Shown one piece after another: positions 1,058 through 43,573 of a DNA stretch of 49,834 bases. Made by a program: the position numbers and the translations under genes. Every line of letters starts with the position of its first letter. Position 1 is the stretch's first letter. Below the pieces are notes generated by a model that was given only the letters and a program-made list of their open reading frames with translations, searched no databases and was not told the origin of the DNA. Source of the stretch: Escherichia phage UP30; sequence record OX638287; one strand, 5' to 3'.

Positions 1058-1528
1058 ATGACAACAATCACTGTATTCTTGGCGAAAGACGAACTGGACG
1101 ACGAAATGTCATTCTTCGCGTTTGAGCACAGAACCGGATCGCACTGGCACACTTACAGCCACTACACGGTTATCTCAATCGAAGCGTACGACGGGGATTT
1201 GCTCACTGACAAGCTGAGTGATTTTATTGAAACTGTTAAGACTAGCGAAGGTTGCGAGTGGAAAGAAGATCATGAAGTTATGCGAATGTACGAGATGATT
1301 AATCCGGTTCGCCTTGAGTCGTTCGAGCTTGATCCTGATGTGACTATTAAGGTGAGAAAGCCTGGTGAGTTGTTGCCAGGGATGCGTGTGCTGACTGGTT
1401 GCACAGGCCGTAAGGTGTGGCGCACGGTATCGAAGGTTCGCCAGCGTTCAGAAACATGCTATAGCTTATTCTTTGAAGATGGTTGGAATGAGATGGCTGG
1501 TAGCGAAGTGAAGTACCTCACCAAATAG
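1058..1528 (+). CDS. hypothetical protein (156 aa)
   Basis: ORF, GGAGG RBS, stop TAG embedded in box. Confidence 0.6.
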   Translation: MTTITVFLAKDELDDEMSFFAFEHRTGSHWHTYSHYTVISIEAYDGDLLTDKLSDFIETVKTSEGCEWKEDHEVMRMYEMINPVRLESFELDPDVTIKVRKPGELLPGMRVLTGCTGRKVWRTVSKVRQRSETCYSLFFEDGWNEMAGSEVKYLTK

Positions 1529-1574
1529 CACGAATTGTTAAAACCGGATCGGGGTATCTTGATATAGTTACCCC
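1526..1574 (+). promoter_or_regulatory. early promoter module
   Basis: tagcacgaattgttaaaac; ggggtatcTTGATATAGTtacccc. Confidence 0.6.
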
Positions 1575-1606
1575 ATCGAAACGAGATACCAATCAGAGGA
1601 ATCACC

Positions 1607-1870
1607 ATGTCAATCGTCAAGAATCGCAAAGCAATCGAAGCTACCCGTCACAACAAGCAACACGCGATTTTCATCTCTCGCTACTGCTCAAATATCAATG
1701 ATGGCGCACAGTATCGACGCTATGCAGTTATTGAGCTTTCCCCGTACATTTACAAGGAGTATCTCGAGGATAACGGCAAATGGATTGAGACTGAAGGCAT
1801 GACGAGCTTCTTGATCTGGAATGGTGAATTTCAGGGTTATGACGATATCAGCACTTTAATTGAGGAATAA
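1607..1870 (+). CDS. hypothetical protein (87 aa)
   Basis: ORF preceded by promoter module and CCAATCAGAGGAAT leader. Confidence 0.55.
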   Translation: MSIVKNRKAIEATRHNKQHAIFISRYCSNINDGAQYRRYAVIELSPYIYKEYLEDNGKWIETEGMTSFLIWNGEFQGYDDISTLIEE

Positions 1871-1876
1871 ATAATT

Positions 1877-2104
1877 ATGCCGCGTTACAGCAATCTAACT
1901 CAACTAACCCGCGTCAACGGGCACATGATCCCGGCTAAATCTACTCACTGCGCGAAAGGCGCAAAGCACGGATTATATTTCAAGTGGCGCGGTCAATGGA
2001 ACTTCACGGCGGTGAGCAATTTTTACATGCGCGTTCCTGGTGATGACCCGCAATCGGTAGTAGAAAACTCAATCGGCGACAACAAGATCGAGGTACTAAA
2101 ATGA
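1877..2104 (+). CDS. hypothetical protein (75 aa)
   Basis: ORF, GAGGAATAA RBS. Confidence 0.5.
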   Translation: MPRYSNLTQLTRVNGHMIPAKSTHCAKGAKHGLYFKWRGQWNFTAVSNFYMRVPGDDPQSVVENSIGDNKIEVLK

Positions 2105-2211
2105 ACTTTAATACAGTAGCGCTATGGTCTGCCGTCTGGTTCTTCTGCATGGGTCACGTTATGGTCGGCATTGTGGTAATGCTTCTCCTGTGTGCGGGGG
2201 CGTTCGAATGA
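2101..2211 (+). CDS. putative small hydrophobic protein (36 aa, MNFNTVALWSAVWFFCMGHVMVGIVVMLLLCAGAFE)
   Basis: ATGA start/stop overlap with upstream gene and with next gene; hydrophobic; below the 60-aa ORF-track cutoff. Confidence 0.3.
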   Translation: MNFNTVALWSAVWFFCMGHVMVGIVVMLLLCAGAFE

Positions 2212-2381
2212 TGCGAATATTGATTTTCATGATGGCGGCGGTCGCCATGGCTATCCTGATAGTGTCAGGATGCGGAGAGGTCAGAGATAGCTGTCATAAG
2301 ACCGGGAACCAGGTTACTACGTTTGTGATGGTTGGCAACGTTCTGCTACCAATCACATCAAATGAAATCACTTGCGAATAG
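2208..2381 (+). CDS. putative lipoprotein (57 aa; signal peptide with lipobox IVSGC)
   Basis: In-frame internal ATGATG of ORF 2124-2381; N-terminal hydrophobic stretch then Cys lipobox. Confidence 0.4.
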   Translation: MMRILIFMMAAVAMAILIVSGCGEVRDSCHKTGNQVTTFVMVGNVLLPITSNEITCE

Positions 2382-2390
2382 GATTTAACA

Positions 2391-2582
2391 ATGGCTGATT
2401 TTATGCACCAAATGATTGCAGTATTCAAAGGCAGCGATGACCAGGAAGTGAAAGAGTGCTTTACCGTTGACAAGCCTTATAGTGCGTCGCTTACCAGCTT
2501 CGGGAACATCTCATTGCTTGATGATAATGGAGATCCCTGGATATTCGACGAAGATACTGATTGCTTCGAAATTAAAGAATAG
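2391..2582 (+). CDS. hypothetical protein (63 aa)
   Basis: ORF, stop TAG is start of box. Confidence 0.5.
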   Translation: MADFMHQMIAVFKGSDDQEVKECFTVDKPYSASLTSFGNISLLDDNGDPWIFDEDTDCFEIKE

Positions 2583-2628
2583 CACTTTTTGTTAAAACTC
2601 AATATAGGGGTTGCGCTATAGTAACCCC
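2580..2628 (+). promoter_or_regulatory. early promoter module
   Basis: tagcactttttgttaaaac; ggggttgcgcTATAGTaacccc. Confidence 0.6.
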
Positions 2629-2653
2629 ATCGACAACGAGCGAGGACGATAGC

Positions 2654-3142
2654 ATGAAAATCAAATTACTTTGCACTGGCGGTTATAAAGGCTTTACCCG
2701 AGATCTGGAAGCAGACCCTATCGTGGTTGATGCGGTGAAGTGTGATGATAGCCTCGGCGGCTACCGCGTGAAGTTTGACGACCTGGTTAAAGCTGGTGTG
2801 TACGATCTGGATTATGGACTTTCGGTTAGCCCGGTAGTCGGCCCGGCAGATTTCAACGAGAAGGACGGAACGATGTTCTTTTTTGAATGGGAAGTGCAAT
2901 CAAACATCAAGCCGCGCAAGGTTCGTCTTCTCAGCAATGGCGGCTACCCTATGCGCCCAGGTTATGAGAATCGCACGTTCCCGGTTATCGTTGACTTTGA
3001 AGAAATCACCGCACACTTAGCTTATATCAACGGTGAACAGCTTAATGCTGTTGGATTCGTGGGAGGTATGAATCAAGAGGCGCTATGCTTCTTCCATTGT
3101 AAAGCCGAGCCGTTCGATATTGAGTGCGAATTGGTTTACTAA
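2654..3142 (+). CDS. hypothetical protein (162 aa)
   Basis: ORF after promoter module, GAGGA RBS. Confidence 0.6.
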   Translation: MKIKLLCTGGYKGFTRDLEADPIVVDAVKCDDSLGGYRVKFDDLVKAGVYDLDYGLSVSPVVGPADFNEKDGTMFFFEWEVQSNIKPRKVRLLSNGGYPMRPGYENRTFPVIVDFEEITAHLAYINGEQLNAVGFVGGMNQEALCFFHCKAEPFDIECELVY

Positions 3143-3183
3143 GCACGAATTGTTAAAAGTGGATTTGGCCTGACTGGTATAAT
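3141..3183 (+). promoter_or_regulatory. early promoter module
   Basis: aagcacgaattgttaaaag; TGgTATAAT 3175-3183. Confidence 0.55.
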
Positions 3184-3213
3184 CCCCACATCAACCACTA
3201 AGAGGAAATCATT

Positions 3214-3720: not shown

Positions 3721-3869
3721 TGGTTACCTGGGTTTTGATTATCCTGATGAGCAATGGACCGGATCACGTATATATGAACAGCCAGCATTCATGCAATGAG
3801 GCTCGGGCAGTCATTGCAGATAACAAGCCGTTCGGATACGAAGTAAAAACTATGTGCGTTAAACGATAG
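3720..3869 (+). CDS. putative small protein (49 aa, MVTWVLIILMSNGPDH...)
   Basis: TAATG overlap with upstream stop, GAGGTG RBS, stop TAG embedded in box; hydrophobic N-terminus. Confidence 0.4.
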   Translation: MVTWVLIILMSNGPDHVYMNSQHSCNEARAVIADNKPFGYEVKTMCVKR

Positions 3870-3914
3870 CACGAATTGCTAAACCTTCCGCAAGGCCATT
3901 TGATATAGTGGCCT
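3867..3914 (+). promoter_or_regulatory. early promoter module
   Basis: tagcacgaattgctaaac; aaggccatTTGATATAGTggcctt. Confidence 0.6.
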
Positions 3915-3949
3915 TATTGAAGCAGGGCAACCAATCAGAGGAATCAGCT

Positions 3950-4156: not shown

Positions 4157-4427
4157 GTTAAAAATCGCTCCGGTACATTTCATCGGGGTAATGAACGGAA
4201 CCAAAACGGCTGAGTTCCGAGTCAATGACCGCAACTTCCAGCCCGGCGATATCCTGGAGCTATGCGAGTTCGAGCGCGATGAGTTTACCGGGTGGGAGGT
4301 TCACGCCAGGGTATCCGATGTTACCGATGTGACGCCATACATCAATCGCGGGTATGACGAGCAAGAATGCGACTTCACGCAATACGTGATGTTATCAATC
4401 AAGCCTTACAGGAAGATTAGGCCATGA
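4140..4427 (+). CDS. ASCH-domain-like protein (95 aa)
   Basis: GTKTAEFR matches the GxKxxExR ASCH signature. Confidence 0.45.
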   Translation: MSKRHKLKIAPVHFIGVMNGTKTAEFRVNDRNFQPGDILELCEFERDEFTGWEVHARVSDVTDVTPYINRGYDEQECDFTQYVMLSIKPYRKIRP

Positions 4428-5080
4428 AATTTGAATGCGTATCTAGTAGCGGATCTGGTTTCAAGTATGGAAAAACTTACGAAGGTGTTCGCGTAAATGA
4501 TGACAGTTTTATCATTACAGCTGAGAACGGTTGCAATGTGAACGTTGTTCGACGTAACGAATACCAGGAAATTTTCCTGCCGTATGGCGGTAGCTCAAAA
4601 TATATCTTCCATCGAATCGTAGATGGTGTTAAATTTAAAGACGTAATTGAAGCAATCAACCAACTACATAATAAAGAGGTAAAAACTATGAAATTCGAAT
4701 GTATCAGCGATAACACCAAAAAATTTACCGTTGGCAAAATCTACGACGCGCCGACTGAGAACGCAAAGCACACTGTAGCGCTAACCGATGACACGGGCCG
4801 CCACCGCATTGCAACCGTGACGCATAATGGCGAAGGTCTTCGCTGGAATAGCGGCGGCACTAAGTTTGCAACGTTCGGCAAGAAGAAGCGGAAATTTAAT
4901 ACCAGTCGAATCAAGGGCGATTTCCGCATCGAACATGGTAAGATTCACAGCGTTAAGCCAAGCGAAGTTGATGGTAAAGTCAAGCCTAAGCTGACCAACA
5001 AGGACATTGATAATCTGGCGAATCTGGCTATGGCTACCGTGCTTCTTATTTCTCTTATCGTGCTGTTTTTCGTAGTTTAA
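4424..5080 (+). CDS. membrane-anchored protein with two tandem MKFEC repeats (218 aa)
   Basis: Internal duplication (MKFECVSSSG... / MKFECISDNT...), C-terminal hydrophobic helix LAMATVLLISLIVLFFVV. Confidence 0.55.
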   Translation: MKFECVSSSGSGFKYGKTYEGVRVNDDSFIITAENGCNVNVVRRNEYQEIFLPYGGSSKYIFHRIVDGVKFKDVIEAINQLHNKEVKTMKFECISDNTKKFTVGKIYDAPTENAKHTVALTDDTGRHRIATVTHNGEGLRWNSGGTKFATFGKKKRKFNTSRIKGDFRIEHGKIHSVKPSEVDGKVKPKLTNKDIDNLANLAMATVLLISLIVLFFVV

Positions 5081-5237: not shown

Positions 5238-5456
5238 ATGGCTACTATCATGACAGCAGAAGATGCAGCACGCGACGCAGTGGAAGGAATGCGCCCAAAT
5301 AGCTCCAGAATCGCCCACTACTACAAATCTGAGGTGTCGGCAGTGCAATTGACCCACGAAATTTTAAGGCTCCCACAGGTCGATTCAGCGCGCGTAGTGA
5401 CGTGCTTAAAAAATTATTTTTGCATTGCTATTAAAACGAATAGCACGAATTGCTAA
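5238..5456 (+). CDS. hypothetical protein (72 aa)
   Basis: ORF with AAGGGTG RBS; stop TAA embedded in box. Confidence 0.35.
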   Translation: MATIMTAEDAARDAVEGMRPNSSRIAHYYKSEVSAVQLTHEILRLPQVDSARVVTCLKNYFCIAIKTNSTNC

Positions 5457-5488
5457 AACCTATCAAGGGGAATGCGCTATGATTCCCC
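5441..5488 (+). promoter_or_regulatory. early promoter module
   Basis: tagcacgaattgctaaaac; ggggaatgcgcTATGATtcccc. Confidence 0.55.
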
Positions 5489-5513
5489 TACACCAACAAG
5501 CGAGGAAACACAC

Positions 5514-5960: not shown

Positions 5961-6009
5961 TGGCACGAATTGCTAAAACTTGCTCAAGGGTATTTGATAG
6001 AATGCCCTT
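5961..6009 (+). promoter_or_regulatory. early promoter module
   Basis: tggcacgaattgctaaaac; aagggtatTTGATAGAATgccctt. Confidence 0.55.
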
Positions 6010-6043
6010 CGTTGAGTTAAGCAACCAATCAGAGGAATAAATC

Positions 6044-6685: not shown

Positions 6686-7258
6686 ATGAAAACAGCTATC
6701 ATTTTAAACGGCGCGCCGGGCGCTGGTAAGGACACTATCGGCGCAATCCTGGCTGACATTTACGATCACGTAGCTTTGCGCAGCTTCAAAGAGCCGATGT
6801 TTGAGATTGCTCGGGCAATACTTGGTGAAACTAACTACGAGTATTTCATGTTCTTGTATGAGGACCGTCGATACAAAGAAGAGCCAGCATCTATCCTGAA
6901 CGGTAAAAGCCCACGCCAGTTTATGATCTGGATTAGCGAAGAGGTAATCAAGCCACAGTTCGGCAATCGCTTCTTCGGTATGCGAGCGGAAAGTAAGGTG
7001 AAAGAGTCGTACTCCCTTTCGGTATTTACTGACGGTGGATTCAAAGATGAGATCTTGCAAATGATTGAAGGCGATATCCAGGTAAAGCTATGTCGAATCC
7101 ATCGCAACGGTTGCAACTTCGATAATGACAGTCGCGATTATATCTACCTGGATGATATGATCGGGGTCAACGGTTATCAGGAATGTGATTTCTTCTCTGT
7201 TGAGGGTCATCCTGAAATTACCGCTCAGCACATAGCCGCCACATTCATCAATAAATAG
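6686..7258 (+). CDS. P-loop kinase, dNMP-kinase-like (190 aa)
   Basis: N-terminal GAPGAGKDT Walker A of the GKDT type seen in phage dNMP kinases. Confidence 0.5.
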   Translation: MKTAIILNGAPGAGKDTIGAILADIYDHVALRSFKEPMFEIARAILGETNYEYFMFLYEDRRYKEEPASILNGKSPRQFMIWISEEVIKPQFGNRFFGMRAESKVKESYSLSVFTDGGFKDEILQMIEGDIQVKLCRIHRNGCNFDNDSRDYIYLDDMIGVNGYQECDFFSVEGHPEITAQHIAATFINK

Positions 7259-7303
7259 CACGAATTGCTAAAGCGTCGGTGGGGTGATTTGATATAGTTA
7301 CCT
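7256..7303 (+). promoter_or_regulatory. early promoter module
   Basis: tagcacgaattgctaaagc; TGaTATAGT 7290-7298. Confidence 0.55.
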
Positions 7304-7330
7304 CATCGACAACGAAGAGAGAAAATCGAA

Positions 7331-25766: not shown

Positions 25767-28700
25767 ATGATTCAAAAAGTGATAAGCGGATCTAAGGGCG
25801 GCTCGTCTAAGCCTCATAATCCAGTTGAAATGGAAGATAACCTGATCTCAATTAACAAGATCAAGATCCTGTTAGCTATATCTGACGGCGAGATTGACGA
25901 AACATTCAGCCTCAAGCAACTGATGTTTAACTCGGTCCCGGTGCAAAACGAGGATGGATCATTCAACTTCGAAGGGGTAAAGGCAGAGTTCAGGCCGGGC
26001 ACGCAGACTCAGGAATACATCAAAGGCATGGAAGATAGCGCCAGTGAGGTAACTGTAAACCGTGAGGTTACGACCGATAATCCGTACACGATCGCAGTAA
26101 CCAATAAAACTCTGTCGGCAATCCGTATAAAAATGTTCATGCCTCGCGGAGTACGCATTGAAAACAATGGCGATAAAAACGGCGTTAGAGTTGAGTACGA
26201 AGTGCAGCAAGCGGTTGATGGGGGTTCGTTTGAGACGGTGCTCACTGACGTAATCGAAGGCAAAACAATGTCAGGTTACGACAGAAGTCGTCGCGTAAAC
26301 CTGCCGAACTTCAATAATCAGGTGATATTCAGAGTCGTTCGCAAAACTCCAGACTCTAACGATTCGAACGTTGTCGATGCAATCCAGGTGAGAAGCTATG
26401 CCGAGGTAATTGATGCCAAATTCCGTTACCCTCTGACTGGTCTTCTTTTTGTTGAGTTTGATTCGAAGATGTTCCCGAGCCAGTTACCTACGATCTCAAT
26501 TCGTAAGCGATGGAAGATTGTAAACGTTCCGTCTAACTATGATCCAGAATCACGAACCTATAACGGGAATTGGGATGGAACTTTTAAGAAGGCGTGGACG
26601 AATAACCCTGCCTGGGTGCTTTATGACCTGATGATTAATCAGCGCTATGGACTGGATCAGAAAGAGCTTGGAATCTCCGTAGATAAATGGGCGCTATATG
26701 AGGCCGCGCAATATTGCGATCAGATGGTCCCTGACGGGAAAGGCGGTACTGAGCCTCGGTATCTTTGCGACGTGATAATCCAGTCACAGACTGATGCTTA
26801 CAAAGTTATTCGAGATATTTGCTCAATCTTCCGTGGCATGAGTTTTTGGAATGGTGAGAGCATTTCTGTAATCATCGACAGACCGCGTGAGCCTGCGTAC
26901 ATCTTCACGAACGACAACGTTGTTAATGGTGACTTCTCCTATACTTTCGCAAGCGAAAAGAGTATGTACACGACGTGTAACGTGATGTTTGATGACGAAC
27001 AAAACATGTATCAACAGGATGTTGAGCCAGTATTCGATCGTGAGGCGACTCTACGGTTCGGTAACAACGTAACGAGCATTACAGCGATCGGATGCACTCG
27101 ACGCAGTGAGGCTAACCGTCGCGGTAGGTGGATTCTGAAAACCAACCTACGCAGCACCACGGTAAACTTCGCTACCGGGCTGGAGGGAATGATTCCGACC
27201 ATCGGGGATGTTGTAGCAATAGCTGACAACTTCTGGTCAAGTAACTTGACTATGAACCTATCAGGGCGATTGCTCGAAGTGTCTGGAAGTCAGATTTTCT
27301 TGCCGTTCCGTGTGGATGCTCGCGCAGGTGACTTTATTATCGTAAATAAGCCTGATGGCAAGCCCGTGAAGCGCACAATCTCAAGTGTTAGTGCGGATGG
27401 AAAGACCATAGAGATTAACATCGGCTTCGGCTTTCCTGTGAAGCCTAACACGGTGTTTGCAATTGACCGTACCGACCTTGCGTTACAGCAGTACGTCGTG
27501 ACTAAAATCGACAAGGGTGATGACGATGAGGAATTTACCTACAAAATCACTGCGGTCGAGTACGATCCTAACAAGTACGATGAGATTGATTATGGCGTGA
27601 ACATCGATGATAGACCTACAAGCATCGTTGAGCCTGACCAGATACCTAAACCGGAAAACGTGCAGGTGTCCTCAGAGTCGAGAATCGTCCAGGGGATGAG
27701 CGTAGAAACGATGATTGTTAGCTGGGATAAAGTGCCGTACGCAGTTTTCTATGACGTCCAGTGGCGAAAGGATAACGGCAACTGGCAGAACGTTCCGCAG
27801 ACGGCAAACAAAGAGGTTTACGTTGAAGGGATTTACGCTGGTAACTATCAGGTTCGCGTTCGATCTGTGGCTGGCTCCGGTACGACTTCAGGTTGGTCAA
27901 ATATCGTAGCGGCGACGTTGACAGGTAAGCAAGGTGAACCGGGTCGACCGATTAACCTTACGGCTACGGATGATGTTGTTTTTGGTATCCGTACAAAATG
28001 GGGGTTCTCTGAAGGTTCAGGCGATACTGCCTATACAGAGTTGCAACAGTCACCGGATGGAACGGTTGACAATGCAAGTTTACTCTCTCTGGTTCCGTAT
28101 CCGCAGCATGAGTATTATCACTCACCAATGCCGGGCGGGAATATCGTGTGGTATCGGGTAAGGACGGTTGACAGGATCGGTAACGTGTCGCAGTGGACTG
28201 ATTTTGTCAGAGGCATGGCATCAACGAACGTAGACGATATTATCGGTGATATTTCTGTTGATATCGAAAACTCGCCAGGTTACGAATGGCTTGTTGATAA
28301 TGCAACCGACAACGCAGCGCAGAACGCAGCGAACGCTGAAGCATCAATTGAAAACGCACTCGCTAACGATAGAGACGCGATCCACATGAAGAAGGAGAAC
28401 GGTAAACGAAAAGCCGAGTACACCAAATCTCTTAAACTGATTGCTGACGAGACAGAGGCGCGCGTGACGGCTGTTGAGCAATTGAAAGCTAGTTTTGGAG
28501 ATCAGATTAGCGCGAGCAATAGCGAATTGCGTGAGGTTATCGCAACTGAGACAGGTGCGCTATCTCGCGAGATTGACCAACTCAAGGCAGAGATTGGTGA
28601 TGATATTCAGGCAAGTTTGACCGATATCCGTGAAGCCATCGCGAACGAGACTGAGGCAAGAACGCAAGCTGACTTAACGTTAAGCGCGCGACTTGGGGAT

Positions 28701-29216
28701 AATGAGGCGGCACTTTCTCAAAAACTTGACTCGTGGAGTAACGCGGATTCGACTGGCGCAATGTACGGCGTCAAGCTGGGACTTAAGTATAATGGTCAGG
28801 AATACAGCGCAGGCATGGCTATGTCTCTGATTGGTTCTGGCGCGGTTGTTAAGGCTCAGATTCTTTTTGAGGCGTCACGATTTGCCATCATGACAGGAAT
28901 GAATGGTCAGACTCAGTATCCTTTCGTGGTTGAGAATGGTCAAGTTATCCTGAGTAGCGCAATCATCAAGGATGGATTTATTACTAACGCAATGATTGGT
29001 AACGCAATTCAGTCTAACAATTGGGATGGATATCAAGGGTGGCATATTAACAAGAATGGTGCAGCTTACTTTATGAACGCAACAGTAAGGGGTGCTTTGT
29101 ATGCAGATAACGGATCGTTTGCATTCAACGGAACAAACAACACGGTTCAGATAAACAATAACGGGATCACGGTTAACCTACCTAACGGGGGCCGAGTGGT
29201 TGTTGGTGTCTGGTAA
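25767..29216 (+). CDS. host specificity / central tail fibre protein (lambda gpJ-like, 1149 aa)
   Basis: Size and position after I; fibronectin-III-like region; heptad-repeat-rich C-terminal part. Confidence 0.85.
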   Translation: MIQKVISGSKGGSSKPHNPVEMEDNLISINKIKILLAISDGEIDETFSLKQLMFNSVPVQNEDGSFNFEGVKAEFRPGTQTQEYIKGMEDSASEVTVNREVTTDNPYTIAVTNKTLSAIRIKMFMPRGVRIENNGDKNGVRVEYEVQQAVDGGSFETVLTDVIEGKTMSGYDRSRRVNLPNFNNQVIFRVVRKTPDSNDSNVVDAIQVRSYAEVIDAKFRYPLTGLLFVEFDSKMFPSQLPTISIRKRWKIVNVPSNYDPESRTYNGNWDGTFKKAWTNNPAWVLYDLMINQRYGLDQKELGISVDKWALYEAAQYCDQMVPDGKGGTEPRYLCDVIIQSQTDAYKVIRDICSIFRGMSFWNGESISVIIDRPREPAYIFTNDNVVNGDFSYTFASEKSMYTTCNVMFDDEQNMYQQDVEPVFDREATLRFGNNVTSITAIGCTRRSEANRRGRWILKTNLRSTTVNFATGLEGMIPTIGDVVAIADNFWSSNLTMNLSGRLLEVSGSQIFLPFRVDARAGDFIIVNKPDGKPVKRTISSVSADGKTIEINIGFGFPVKPNTVFAIDRTDLALQQYVVTKIDKGDDDEEFTYKITAVEYDPNKYDEIDYGVNIDDRPTSIVEPDQIPKPENVQVSSESRIVQGMSVETMIVSWDKVPYAVFYDVQWRKDNGNWQNVPQTANKEVYVEGIYAGNYQVRVRSVAGSGTTSGWSNIVAATLTGKQGEPGRPINLTATDDVVFGIRTKWGFSEGSGDTAYTELQQSPDGTVDNASLLSLVPYPQHEYYHSPMPGGNIVWYRVRTVDRIGNVSQWTDFVRGMASTNVDDIIGDISVDIENSPGYEWLVDNATDNAAQNAANAEASIENALANDRDAIHMKKENGKRKAEYTKSLKLIADETEARVTAVEQLKASFGDQISASNSELREVIATETGALSREIDQLKAEIGDDIQASLTDIREAIANETEARTQADLTLSARLGDNEAALSQKLDSWSNADSTGAMYGVKLGLKYNGQEYSAGMAMSLIGSGAVVKAQILFEASRFAIMTGMNGQTQYPFVVENGQVILSSAIIKDGFITNAMIGNAIQSNNWDGYQGWHINKNGAAYFMNATVRGALYADNGSFAFNGTNNTVQINNNGITVNLPNGGRVVVGVW

Positions 29217-29220
29217 CAGA

Positions 29221-29246
29221 AAGGGGCCGATTGGCCCCTTTTTTTA
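29221..29246. terminator. bidirectional terminator between convergent J and cor operon
   Basis: ggggcc-gatt-ggcccc then T7. Confidence 0.7.
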
Positions 29247-30200
29247 ATACATGTTTGGAGTGAAAGGAATTGGCATTGAAATGTTTATGTTGAATGGGAA
29301 TTGAGCGCCGCTCTGAGTAGAATAGTTACCTACCCTCGTTCCTGGTGCGCTTCTAACGTTACCTCCGCTCATGCACACGCCCTTGTATCGGATGTTATTA
29401 TATCCACCTGTAACCCTGCATATTGTGCCAGTTCTCAGTATTGGGAAAAATCCACCGCACCACTGCCAGCCGTCATTTATCGCCATAGTCCCGCCGAGAA
29501 CGAAGGGGCGTCTAACGCTTGAGAAAACGATCTGACCAGCGGGATTGCTCATAGTAATTCCCGGTCCTGGAGGTGGTGGAGTGTTATTAAATATTACGAG
29601 TTGCACGTATACGCTCGCGCCAACGTCATCAATCCCGTTATAGTTTGCATCCCTACACCATATAGTATTTCCGTCAGATTCAAGTGTTACGTTTGGGTTA
29701 TCCCACATACCGAAAGGAACGCCCTGGACTGGCAATTGAGCCTGACCGTTAACCTGGATGCCTCCAACAAATGCGGCACTCATCAACCTTGCGTTATTCG
29801 GTATCGCTGCGAAGTTGGTTGAATCGTTGACAAGTATCCCCTGATTTCCTGCCTGAGCGGGGAGAATTTCGTAACAGTTGCCATAAAATCTCATCCTTCT
29901 TCCACCGTGACCGTTAAAATTCCCTACCGTTATTCGCCCGGTTGAATCATTAACCTTCTGAAAGCTGGTTAAATAATACACCTCAGGAATATAATCCATG
30001 TCGTCTATGTAGATGGACTGAGATGGAAGGCAAAAAGCAGTAGATCCAGGACTCATTTGCAGACCAAAATCAAAAACCGATCCCGATGAGTCAACGCCGT
30101 CCGCTTGTATTGGTCCGCACCATGACGGTGCGCGAAGCCCCGAGGTTATCTCCATTGCCGGACGACCGTCATTTAAGTTTATGTATATTCCTTGTCCCAT
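29244..30200 (-). CDS. hypothetical Gly/Asn-rich protein (about 318 aa), co-operonic with Cor-like lipoprotein
   Basis: ATG 30200 lies 2 nt after upstream stop (coupling); ends at bidirectional terminator. Confidence 0.55.
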   Translation of the reverse strand: MGQGIYINLNDGRPAMEITSGLRAPSWCGPIQADGVDSSGSVFDFGLQMSPGSTAFCLPSQSIYIDDMDYIPEVYYLTSFQKVNDSTGRITVGNFNGHGGRRMRFYGNCYEILPAQAGNQGILVNDSTNFAAIPNNARLMSAAFVGGIQVNGQAQLPVQGVPFGMWDNPNVTLESDGNTIWCRDANYNGIDDVGASVYVQLVIFNNTPPPPGPGITMSNPAGQIVFSSVRRPFVLGGTMAINDGWQWCGGFFPILRTGTICRVTGGYNNIRYKGVCMSGGNVRSAPGTRVGNYSTQSGAQFPFNINISMPIPFTPNMY

Positions 30201-30202
30201 AA

Positions 30203-30433
30203 TTACCACTCTTTAGTTTTGATTGACACCTTGCCGCTAAAGTTTCCCTGGTCGTCGTCTGATGACAGACCTTTGAATCGCATGTCGATTTCTCCAGCGG
30301 GAACATTCTGCCCGTCAACGAATCGCATCATGCAAGAACCGTACGCGTAAGTAACACAGTCGCCATTTTTAAGATTCTGAGCGCAACCAGTCAGGATGAA
30401 TGCAGAAGCGATAATGGTGATTAATTTTTTCAT
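30203..30433 (-). CDS. Cor-like lipoprotein (putative superinfection exclusion)
   Basis: 76 aa, signal peptide with lipobox LTGC, GAGGAC RBS, own sigma70-like promoter; name is from T1/phi80 context, not verified. Confidence 0.5.
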   Translation of the reverse strand: MKKLITIIASAFILTGCAQNLKNGDCVTYAYGSCMMRFVDGQNVPAGEIDMRFKGLSSDDDQGNFSGKVSIKTKEW

Positions 30434-42684: not shown

Positions 42685-43172
42685 TGAGCTTAAAAAATAA
42701 CGTTATAGGCGCATCGATCGGGGCTGCTTTGACGTTGACGCCTACCCTGCTGGAACGAATCGAAGGGATAGAATACGAGGTGTATTACGATATCGCCGGA
42801 GTCCCTACCGTATGCAGCGGAATAACCGGGCCGGACGTCATACCTGGTAAGAAATACACTAAGCGAGAATGCGATGCATTACTGATAAAACATATCGGCG
42901 TCGCTCAGCGATACGTTGACAAAAAGGTGAATGTTGATATTCCGGTAACGATGCGCGCGTCACTGTACAGCTTCACTTTCAACGTTGGTACTGGCGCGTT
43001 CGGATCTTCTACAATGCTTAAGCTAATAAATCAGAGTAAGCACAAGGAAGCGTGCAATCAGTTATGGCGATGGGTATACTACCACAACCCAAAAACAAAA
43101 AAGCGAGAAGTGTCTAGAGGACTTAAGAACCGACGCGCTGAAGAATACGCGTATTGCGTTAAGGAATTATGA
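42684..43172 (+). CDS. SAR endolysin (T4-lysozyme-like)
   Basis: N-terminal weakly hydrophobic SAR-like segment; catalytic E-x8-D-x5-T pattern ([16 protein letters not shown]). Confidence 0.75.
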
Positions 43173-43573
43173 TGAAACTGAAGAAAACGTGCATTGCGAT
43201 TGCATTGGCTTTTGGTGTTATTTCCCTATCCGGTTGCTCGACGGCATCTGCCCTGAGCGGTTTAATCGGATCTAAACCGGAAGTTACAGCACAAATCGGA
43301 GAGGAGAACACAAAGCAATTAGCAGGAGTAACCGCAAAATCCGAAGATAAGCGAGATGTTAAAGTTGATAAGTCCAATGTAGGAAAGATTGACTCTTCCT
43401 TGAAGAAGTCAATTGAAGTGTCAACCATTAAGGCTAACACGGTTAACGCTGAAAGCATCACAGTAACAAAACCGGAAAACTGGTACGATGCTATCGTTGG
43501 CTGGATTCTCGTTTTTATCGGTCTATTGCTGGTTTATTTTTCACTTCGTAAGGACGAAAAAAAGGAGGCTTAG
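43169..43573 (+). CDS. unimolecular spanin (N-terminal lipoprotein signal, C-terminal TMD)
   Basis: Lipobox LSGC plus C-terminal transmembrane segment; architecture of the T1 gp11-type u-spanin. Confidence 0.6.

Follow-up and report, generated by a model that had tools for sequence, protein, structure and literature searches.

A small membrane peptide and a predicted prolipoprotein encoded by an overlapping gene pair at the left end of Escherichia phage UP30

Introduction

Small siphophages encode a receptor-binding protein (RBP) and a cognate exclusion lipoprotein directly downstream of gpJ, and the two are exchanged as a module (PMC8594841). The genes of the known masking lipoproteins (Cor, Llp and Rtp45/SEOeko) adjoin that of the RBP and vary along with the receptor (PMC8594841, PMC12685063). 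The target of Rtp45 is LptDE, that of Llp is FhuA (PMC12685063). For the small ORFs at the left end of T1-like genomes, functions have yet to be determined (PMC13164509).

Here we analyze a pair of such small genes in Escherichia phage UP30 (sequence record OX638287). The window, by which we mean the whole stretch of DNA that was analyzed, comprises 49,834 nucleotides, and the region that contains the pair is 84-97% identical at the DNA level to the left end of approximately 55 Escherichia and Shigella Tunavirus (Drexlerviridae) phages, T1 included. A first-pass annotation, made from the sequence of the window, had proposed that one ORF of the track is in fact two genes, one for a hydrophobic peptide and one for an early lipoprotein that might mask the phage receptor. 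We term the two gene products ORF73 and ORF72, after their orthologues in phage T1.

The genes, their split and the lipoprotein label are already known from the T1 annotation of 2004 and from UniProt. In the T1 record, which cites Roberts et al. 2004 (PMID 14972552), orf73 (111 nt) and orf72 (174 nt) are listed, both with a ribosome-binding site (RBS) of their own. The label of orf73 is 'single transmembrane domain predicted N-in and C-out'; orf72 has no descriptive note. AV106 and LeonhardEuler annotate the same two CDS as T1, and in SA30RD, SH2 and Chapo the 174-nt gene alone is annotated, which leaves a gap of 103 nt. The UniRef name of the Shfl1 orf72 homologue is 'Lipoprotein', and the UniProt automatic rule assigns the same label. 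We found no functional work on these genes in the literature searched. As it stands, the finding chiefly corrects one ORF call and re-labels genes that had already been annotated. What the analysis adds is comparative proof of the gene model, a domain layout for ORF72, the orphan status of its family, the existence of natural knock-outs among relatives, and evidence against a linkage to the receptor.

Results

The pair and its upstream neighbour overlap. The stop codon TGA (2102-2104) of a 75-amino acid (aa) ORF at 1877-2104 sits within an ATGA at 2101-2104, which provides the start of a 36-aa ORF (2101-2211, plus strand; ORF73). The TGA of the latter (2209-2211) sits within a further ATGA at 2208-2211, where a 57-aa ORF begins (2208-2381, plus strand; ORF72). 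A Shine-Dalgarno sequence, GAGGT (2090-2094, plus strand), can be read from the sequence 6 nt 5' of ATG 2101 and is kept in 18 sequences. Moreover, the 3' end of the 36-aa gene holds a Shine-Dalgarno-like G-run, GGGGG (2196-2200, plus strand), which precedes ATG 2208 by 7 nt and reads GGAG in many relatives. At both equivalent positions T1 has an annotated RBS. An 85-aa ORF (2124-2381), which is in the frame of the 57-aa ORF, is likewise open, and it is this ORF that the track reports.

We aligned 18 distinct Tunavirus sequences, consisting of the window and 17 relatives, and calculated pooled pairwise pN/pS values. Within 2101-2381 the alignment contains no indels, and both ATGA junctions are retained in all 18 sequences. 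In the 36-aa frame the variable sites at codon positions 1, 2 and 3 number 10, 4 and 25 (25 of 39 in the third position; pN/pS 0.10), and in the 57-aa frame they number 12, 10 and 37 (37 of 59; pN/pS 0.15). The upstream extension of the 85-aa ORF, in contrast, has a pN/pS of approximately 4 in the same sequences. Its frame is interrupted by in-frame stops in three relatives (pSf-2, SA30RD and Shfl1), and T1 has CTG at the site of its ATG. Because of these stops, the missing T1 ATG and the pN/pS of the extension, we conclude that 2101-2211 and 2208-2381 are almost certainly two real, separate and translationally coupled genes. The 85-aa track ORF is, by the same comparison, an artefact that arose because this hydrophobic coding region contains few stops. 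The track model of one 85-aa protein and no 36-aa gene has in its favour that this ORF is uninterrupted in the window and in most relatives. It is, however, refuted by the comparative data on the extension, and the overlapping 36-aa frame, with its low pN/pS and its good Shine-Dalgarno sequence, also argues against it, so that its chance of being correct is vanishingly small. The first-pass annotation had drawn the same split as the T1 annotation of 2004; all its coordinates and both ATGA overlaps were exact when we re-read the two ORFs from the sequence, and the pN/pS values and conserved overlaps bear the split out. The translational coupling that it had suggested is also supported, as is the location of the pair among the small genes of the left-end block.

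Both genes belong to described phage protein families. ORF73 matches phrog_25570 over residues 1-36 (E 5.4e-27) and ORF72 matches phrog_8628 over residues 1-57 (E 1.2e-26), so that full-length profile matches, together with the matches to T1, assign both proteins to these families; for ORF73 the synteny is the same as well. PHROGs carries both families with function unknown. The T1 protein ST73 (YP_003871) has 36 aa, as does the window peptide, to which it is 83% identical, and ST72 (YP_003872) has the same 57 aa as the window lipoprotein at 91% identity. T1 shares with the window pair the gene order after orf74, the ATGA overlaps and the RBS positions, but it lacks the 63-aa gene that follows the pair in the window.

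The homologues of ORF72 form 17 protein clusters, every one of 57 aa. A search of 5.8 billion proteins and a profile search (HMMER) of 1.84 billion cluster representatives recovered 57-aa Tunavirus proteins only, at 79-93% identity, plus two frameshifted variants; the exhaustive HMMER search thus found no ORF72 relatives outside Tunavirus among the 1.84 billion representatives. Judged by these searches, ORF72 is an orphan family that is confined to Tunavirus. ORF73 was found in 55 Tunavirus records at 80-100% identity.

ORF72 is intact in about 52 of the 54 Tunavirus records that carry the gene. It is frameshifted in EF3-1, by a 4-nt insertion in a G-run that may be a sequencing error, as well as in P0018 and P0019, and in vB_SsoS_008 it is truncated to a 33-aa remnant. 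Finally, Eco_BIFF is without the whole stretch equivalent to approximately 800-2590, the pair included. The conservation in relatives on which the first-pass annotation had placed weight therefore holds for most phages that carry the gene and fails in a few others, where ORF72 is frameshifted, truncated or absent. By these comparisons the pair is under purifying selection yet dispensable. Of the lesions of ORF72 in EF3-1, vB_SsoS_008, DELF2 and SH6, some may be sequencing errors.

We then applied a lipoprotein rule of the PROSITE PS51257 type by script. It requires a K or R among residues 1-7, an uncharged stretch of six residues ahead of the lipobox, and the pattern [LIVMFWSTAG]2-[LIVMFYSTAGCQ]-[AGS]-C with the Cys at position 15-35. 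ORF72 matches it with R3, the uncharged h-region VAMAIL and the sequence I-V-S-G-C22. The lipobox codons V19-S20-G21-C22 are found at 2262-2273 (plus strand), and Cys22 (2271-2273) is the predicted site of lipidation and cleavage. The rule alone is weak, since eight ORFs of the window pass it, compared to 3.6 +/- 1.9 passing ORFs per shuffled window. Three of the eight are credible: ORF72, the ORF at 30203-30433 and the ORF at 43172-43573 (plus strand), which encodes a 133-aa u-spanin of the T1 gp11 type that has a lipobox (LSGC) at its N-terminus and a TMD at its C-terminus. The first-pass annotation was right about the lipobox IVSGC at Cys22 of the 57-aa ORF, which matches the rule and is conserved. 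It had, however, counted ORF72 as the second lipoprotein of the window besides a Cor-like one; with the u-spanin included ORF72 is the third.

In 18 cluster proteins S20 and C22 are invariant and G21 is nearly so. Non-canonical lipoboxes are present in SH6 (G21V), DELF2 (C22F) and P0009 (G21C). The relatives are only 3-20% diverged, and the conservation of the lipobox is thus modest evidence. Two further cysteines are conserved in the mature part, C29 in 17 and C56 in all of the 18 proteins, which leaves one disulfide pair once Cys22 is lipidated. Taken together, ORF72 is probably a prolipoprotein with predicted cleavage at VSG/C. The alternative is that it is not lipidated and that its N-terminal segment serves as an uncleaved signal anchor or as a substrate of signal peptidase I, which would yield a small membrane-anchored or free periplasmic peptide. 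The weakness of the rule by itself, the single positive charge of the n-region, and the V or C at -1 and the F in place of Cys in otherwise intact genes speak for this. Yet VSGC is present in nearly all sequences, and Cys22, invariant in the cluster proteins, is replaced only in DELF2. Moreover, without Cys22 an even number of conserved cysteines is left for one disulfide, and the UniProt automatic rule also calls a lipoprotein. We therefore consider a non-lipidated ORF72 quite unlikely.

A Gly at position +2 directs a lipoprotein to the outer membrane, and an Asp at +2 leads to its retention in the inner membrane (Lol-avoidance rule). ORF72 has Gly at +2, which predicts sorting to the outer membrane. 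The IME18 protein has Asp at this position, for which the same rule predicts retention in the inner membrane.

The predicted mature ORF72 consists of the 36 residues that follow cleavage at VSG/C. Residues 23-34 are variable (pN/pS 0.27) and form a putative tether. The C-terminal segment, residues 35-57 (QVTTFVMVGNVLLPITSNEITCE; 2310-2378, plus strand), is near-invariant (pN/pS 0.04, pS 0.20) and predicted to be a beta-hairpin. In an AF2 model based on a shallow family alignment, residues 2-20 form the helix of the signal peptide and residues 38-42 and 45-49 the strands of a hairpin, with an unconfident tether between helix and hairpin; the mean pLDDT is 59, which is low confidence. We infer that mature ORF72 would consist of the lipid-bearing Cys22, a flexible 12-residue tether and a constrained hairpin, which is probably clamped by a disulfide between Cys29 and Cys56. 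A possible mimic of a TonB box in the sequence TTFVM was rejected, as 9% of shuffles also contain the loose form of the motif and ORF72 lacks the strict form. Searches of Pfam (E <= 1), NCBIfam and PADLOC gave no match for ORF72 or ORF73, and a sequence search of the PDB with the ORF72 family profile returned spurious matches only (E 0.06-0.3).

For ORF73 the AF2 model, made from a single sequence, is one continuous helix comprising residues 3-35 with a pLDDT of 92. The protein lacks basic residues, carries a conserved Gly-His halfway along the helix and ends in AGAF-Glu, i.e. with an acidic C-terminus. It is thus predicted to be a 36-residue single-helix membrane peptide. A tblastn search detected an unannotated 36-aa ORF (MNPLAFGTAIFFLATGHFWLFIVTMILIGAGAFDDD) in the Badaguanvirus IME347 (NC_047960.1, 1750-1860) that is 42% identical to ORF73, with an E-value of 1e-8 in the pairwise comparison and of approximately 1 at the database level. 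The reverse search with the IME347 peptide recovered IME347 itself and Tunavirus peptides only. The IME347 ORF also overlaps its upstream gene by an ATGA, and the protein encoded next to it is a soluble-looking one, not a lipoprotein. Between the upstream genes of the window pair and of the IME347 peptide we detected no relatedness. As the homologue stands alone in another genus, ORF73 can apparently act without ORF72, and it is probably independent of it.

The pair is part of a unit of five genes, encoding proteins of 87, 75, 36, 57 and 63 aa, that is bounded by copies of a 51-nt repeat. The copy that opens the unit (1527-1577, plus strand; repeat family D1) contains a promoter-like sequence, TGATATAGT, inside a hairpin, and its equivalent in SA30RD is annotated as a terminator. 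It is followed by an 87-aa gene of unknown function (1607-1870, plus strand; phrog_11449, E 1e-31), which is annotated in relatives, and by the 75-aa gene (plus strand), the orthologue of T1 orf74 with a DUF7274 domain (PF23939, E 2.3e-38; phrog_6080; T1 annotation). The last gene of the unit (2391-2582, plus strand; phrog_11551, E 1e-47) encodes the 63-aa protein that is absent from T1, which is acidic and of unknown function, and the next repeat copy (2581-2631, plus strand; family D1) closes the unit.

The first 8 kb contain nine copies of the repeat, at 788-838, 1527-1577, 2581-2631, 3142-3192, 3868-3918, 5442-5492, 5962-6012 and 7257-7307, and a weak one at 4563-4613. They follow the pattern AGCACGAATTG[C/T]TAAAAC ... 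TGnTATAGT, and each starts where the gene before it has its stop codon. The extended -10-like TGnTATAGT is carried in a hairpin whose arms differ between copies and stay complementary, with compensatory changes in five of the eight stem pairs. A consensus scan for promoters and terminators found nothing at the intergenic repeats. The repeat could serve as a promoter, as a site of RNA processing or as a hotspot for recombination. Distant Drexlerviridae share parts of it at 90-100% conservation, and elsewhere it is annotated as terminator or repeat_region.

In Eco_BIFF the homologue of 523-789 is directly joined to the homologue of 2654-3142. The segment that this phage is missing runs from the repeat copy at 788 to the copy at 2581, and a deletion between repeat copies suggests that gene blocks are lost and gained by recombination between them. 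The T1 record (NC_005833.1) marks positions 1-2800, orf72 and orf73 included, as a repeat region. This is presumably the terminal redundancy, and if so such virion DNA would carry two copies of both genes. The early expression of the pair that we infer derives from its position and the promoter-like repeats only. Farther along the same strand, a 218-aa ORF (4424-5080, plus strand) is internally duplicated (MKFECVSSSGSGFKYGKTYEG... and MKFECISDNTKKFTVGKIYD...) and has a hydrophobic tail, LANLAMATVLLISLIVLFFVV, at its C-terminus; its product may be another membrane-anchored early protein.

The first-pass annotation had suggested that ORF72 masks a receptor, as small early lipoproteins typically do. 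The receptor-binding module of the window comprises J (25767-29216), a 321-aa RBP (29244-30209, minus strand) that is 42% identical to bas18_0025, the LptD-binding RBP of Oekolampad, and a 76-aa LptD-type exclusion lipoprotein (30203-30433, minus strand) that is 66% identical to Oekolampad bas18_0026 and matches PF24052. The last of these had been called Cor-like. It is an exclusion lipoprotein indeed, but it is not Cor: it has only the first 51 nt in common with T1 Cor, and past the signal peptide there is no likeness, which makes it Oekolampad-type instead. By these similarities the window carries an LptD-type module and not Cor, and UP30 is predicted to use LptD, not FhuA.

ORF72, at 2.2 kb, is 27 kb away from this locus (25.8-30.4 kb). 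It is essentially the same in phages with Cor/FhuA modules (T1, ADB-2, JMPW1/2, SH2 and LeonhardEuler) and identical or near-identical in those with LptD-type modules (the window, Sfin-1, ISF002 and Shfl1). The mature ORF72 of the window is even identical to that of ADB-2, which has a Cor module, and each of the two main versions of the tether, RDS and KER, is found alongside either type of module. Mature ORF72 has no Pfam match to lipoproteins of the Cor, Llp or Rtp45 type and no BLASTP alignment to the 30203-30433 lipoprotein of the window itself. When the ORF72 family was compared by hhalign with Cor and the LptD-type lipoproteins, the signal peptide and lipobox alone aligned, with a probability of 35%. 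In the early regions of JulesPiccard, Stevie, KLB26 and IME347 we found no convincing early lipoprotein.

Discussion

Our best overall explanation, to which we assign a probability of roughly 40%, is that ORF72 and ORF73 are an accessory early pair that acts on the cell envelope independently of the receptor, with an exclusion-type benefit as the likeliest outcome. ORF72 would be a lipopeptide made early and anchored in the outer membrane. Its hairpin would most likely dock on a conserved host component of the periplasm or outer membrane rather than on the phage's own terminal receptor, and the infected cell would be protected or reconditioned, for example by exclusion of other phages at a receptor-independent step. 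ORF73 would be an independent small inner-membrane effector. That the pair is accessory and receptor-independent is in itself likely. It appears accessory because it is absent from Eco_BIFF, because ORF72 is broken in EF3-1, P0018, P0019 and vB_SsoS_008, and because it is restricted to Tunavirus, and receptor-independent because mature ORF72 is the same in the window, which has the LptD-type module, and in ADB-2, which has Cor. As to what the pair does, an exclusion-type role is the single most likely one, though we hold it only tentatively and at less than even odds, with membrane perturbation or host takeover close behind.

These readings have to be weighed against two others. ORF72 might be of the Llp/Cor type, binding the terminal receptor of its own phage from the periplasmic side and thereby blocking adsorption of this phage and of others with the same receptor. 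It resembles Llp, Cor and Rtp45 in being a small lipoprotein that is predicted to reside in the outer membrane, in its likely disulfide and in its early position (PMC12685063), and its presence varies among relatives, as would be the case for an accessory exclusion gene. However, in small siphophages such genes reside in the RBP locus without known exception (PMC8594841), and ORF72 does not. Moreover, the window already has a cognate lipoprotein at that locus, and ORF72 does not co-vary with the type of module, its mature sequence being constant across Cor/FhuA and LptD. Finally, the mature domains are dissimilar, that of ORF72 having approximately 36 residues compared to 55-60. The evidence thus argues against ORF72 masking the phage's own terminal receptor, which we regard as very unlikely; it may act on a different conserved component of the envelope.

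Host takeover or membrane perturbation, without any exclusion of phages, is the other possibility. ORF73 would then be viroporin- or regulator-like and alter the membrane potential or a host inner-membrane protein, and ORF72 would modify an envelope machine or counter an envelope-associated defence. The long hydrophobic helix of ORF73, with its conserved mid-membrane His and no basic residues, fits this, as do its conservation by itself in IME347 and the fact that small hydrophobic peptides are common in the early regions of Drexlerviridae. Moreover, T1 is reported to alter the permeability of the membrane at an early stage of infection (Keweloh and Bakker 1984, cited in PMC13407855). Yet Pfam, NCBIfam and PADLOC reveal no similarity to a known toxin, viroporin or anti-defence family, and some relatives can dispense with the pair, as would suit an accessory function better than a core one in takeover. 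We therefore consider this explanation rather unlikely, and less likely than the accessory, receptor-independent envelope pair set out above.

A more far-reaching version of the latter would make ORF72 a new type of effector: a 36-residue lipid-anchored and disulfide-clamped hairpin that is made immediately after infection and acts, independently of the receptor, by strand addition on a conserved envelope machine such as the rim of an outer-membrane barrel or a periplasmic beta-sheet protein, resulting in broad exclusion or envelope reprogramming. The His-bearing helix of ORF73 would be a separate inner-membrane effector. This is unlikely, but if true no phage lipoprotein effector smaller than ORF72 would be known, and its mechanism would differ from those of Llp, Cor and Rtp45. 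If ORF72 acts on an envelope component other than the receptor, small siphophages would have a second, receptor-independent layer of envelope control. With its constrained 23-residue C-terminal segment, the confinement of ORF72 to one genus and its natural knock-outs, the pair is a clean, short and testable candidate.

How does the pair compare to known systems? It resembles two-component spanins such as lambda Rz/Rz1 in that the gene of a small lipoprotein overlaps that of an inner-membrane protein. However, the i-spanin of such systems has an N-terminal TMD and a long periplasmic coiled-coil, whereas ORF73 is all one helix with no periplasmic domain, and spanin genes are found in the lysis cassette, whereas ORF72 is encoded in the left-end block of small genes. 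The phage also encodes a u-spanin of its own, the T1 gp11-type protein at 43172-43573. Colicin lysis proteins and entericidins are very small lipopeptides, and the sizes of their precursors (approximately 45-57 aa) and mature forms (approximately 25-36 aa) are like those of ORF72. ORF72 has, however, no Pfam match to them (E <= 1), and the genetic context differs. Llp of T5, Cor of T1, phi80 and N15, Rtp45, and SE of Oekolampad (PF24052) are, like ORF72, small predicted outer-membrane lipoproteins of lytic phages with an internal Cys; the likeness ends at the signal peptide, and their mature forms of approximately 55-60 residues exceed the 36 or so of ORF72. Rtp45 contacts the rim of the LptD barrel by a beta-strand (PMC12685063), and by analogy this would be a plausible mode of action for the putative lipid-anchored hairpin of ORF72.
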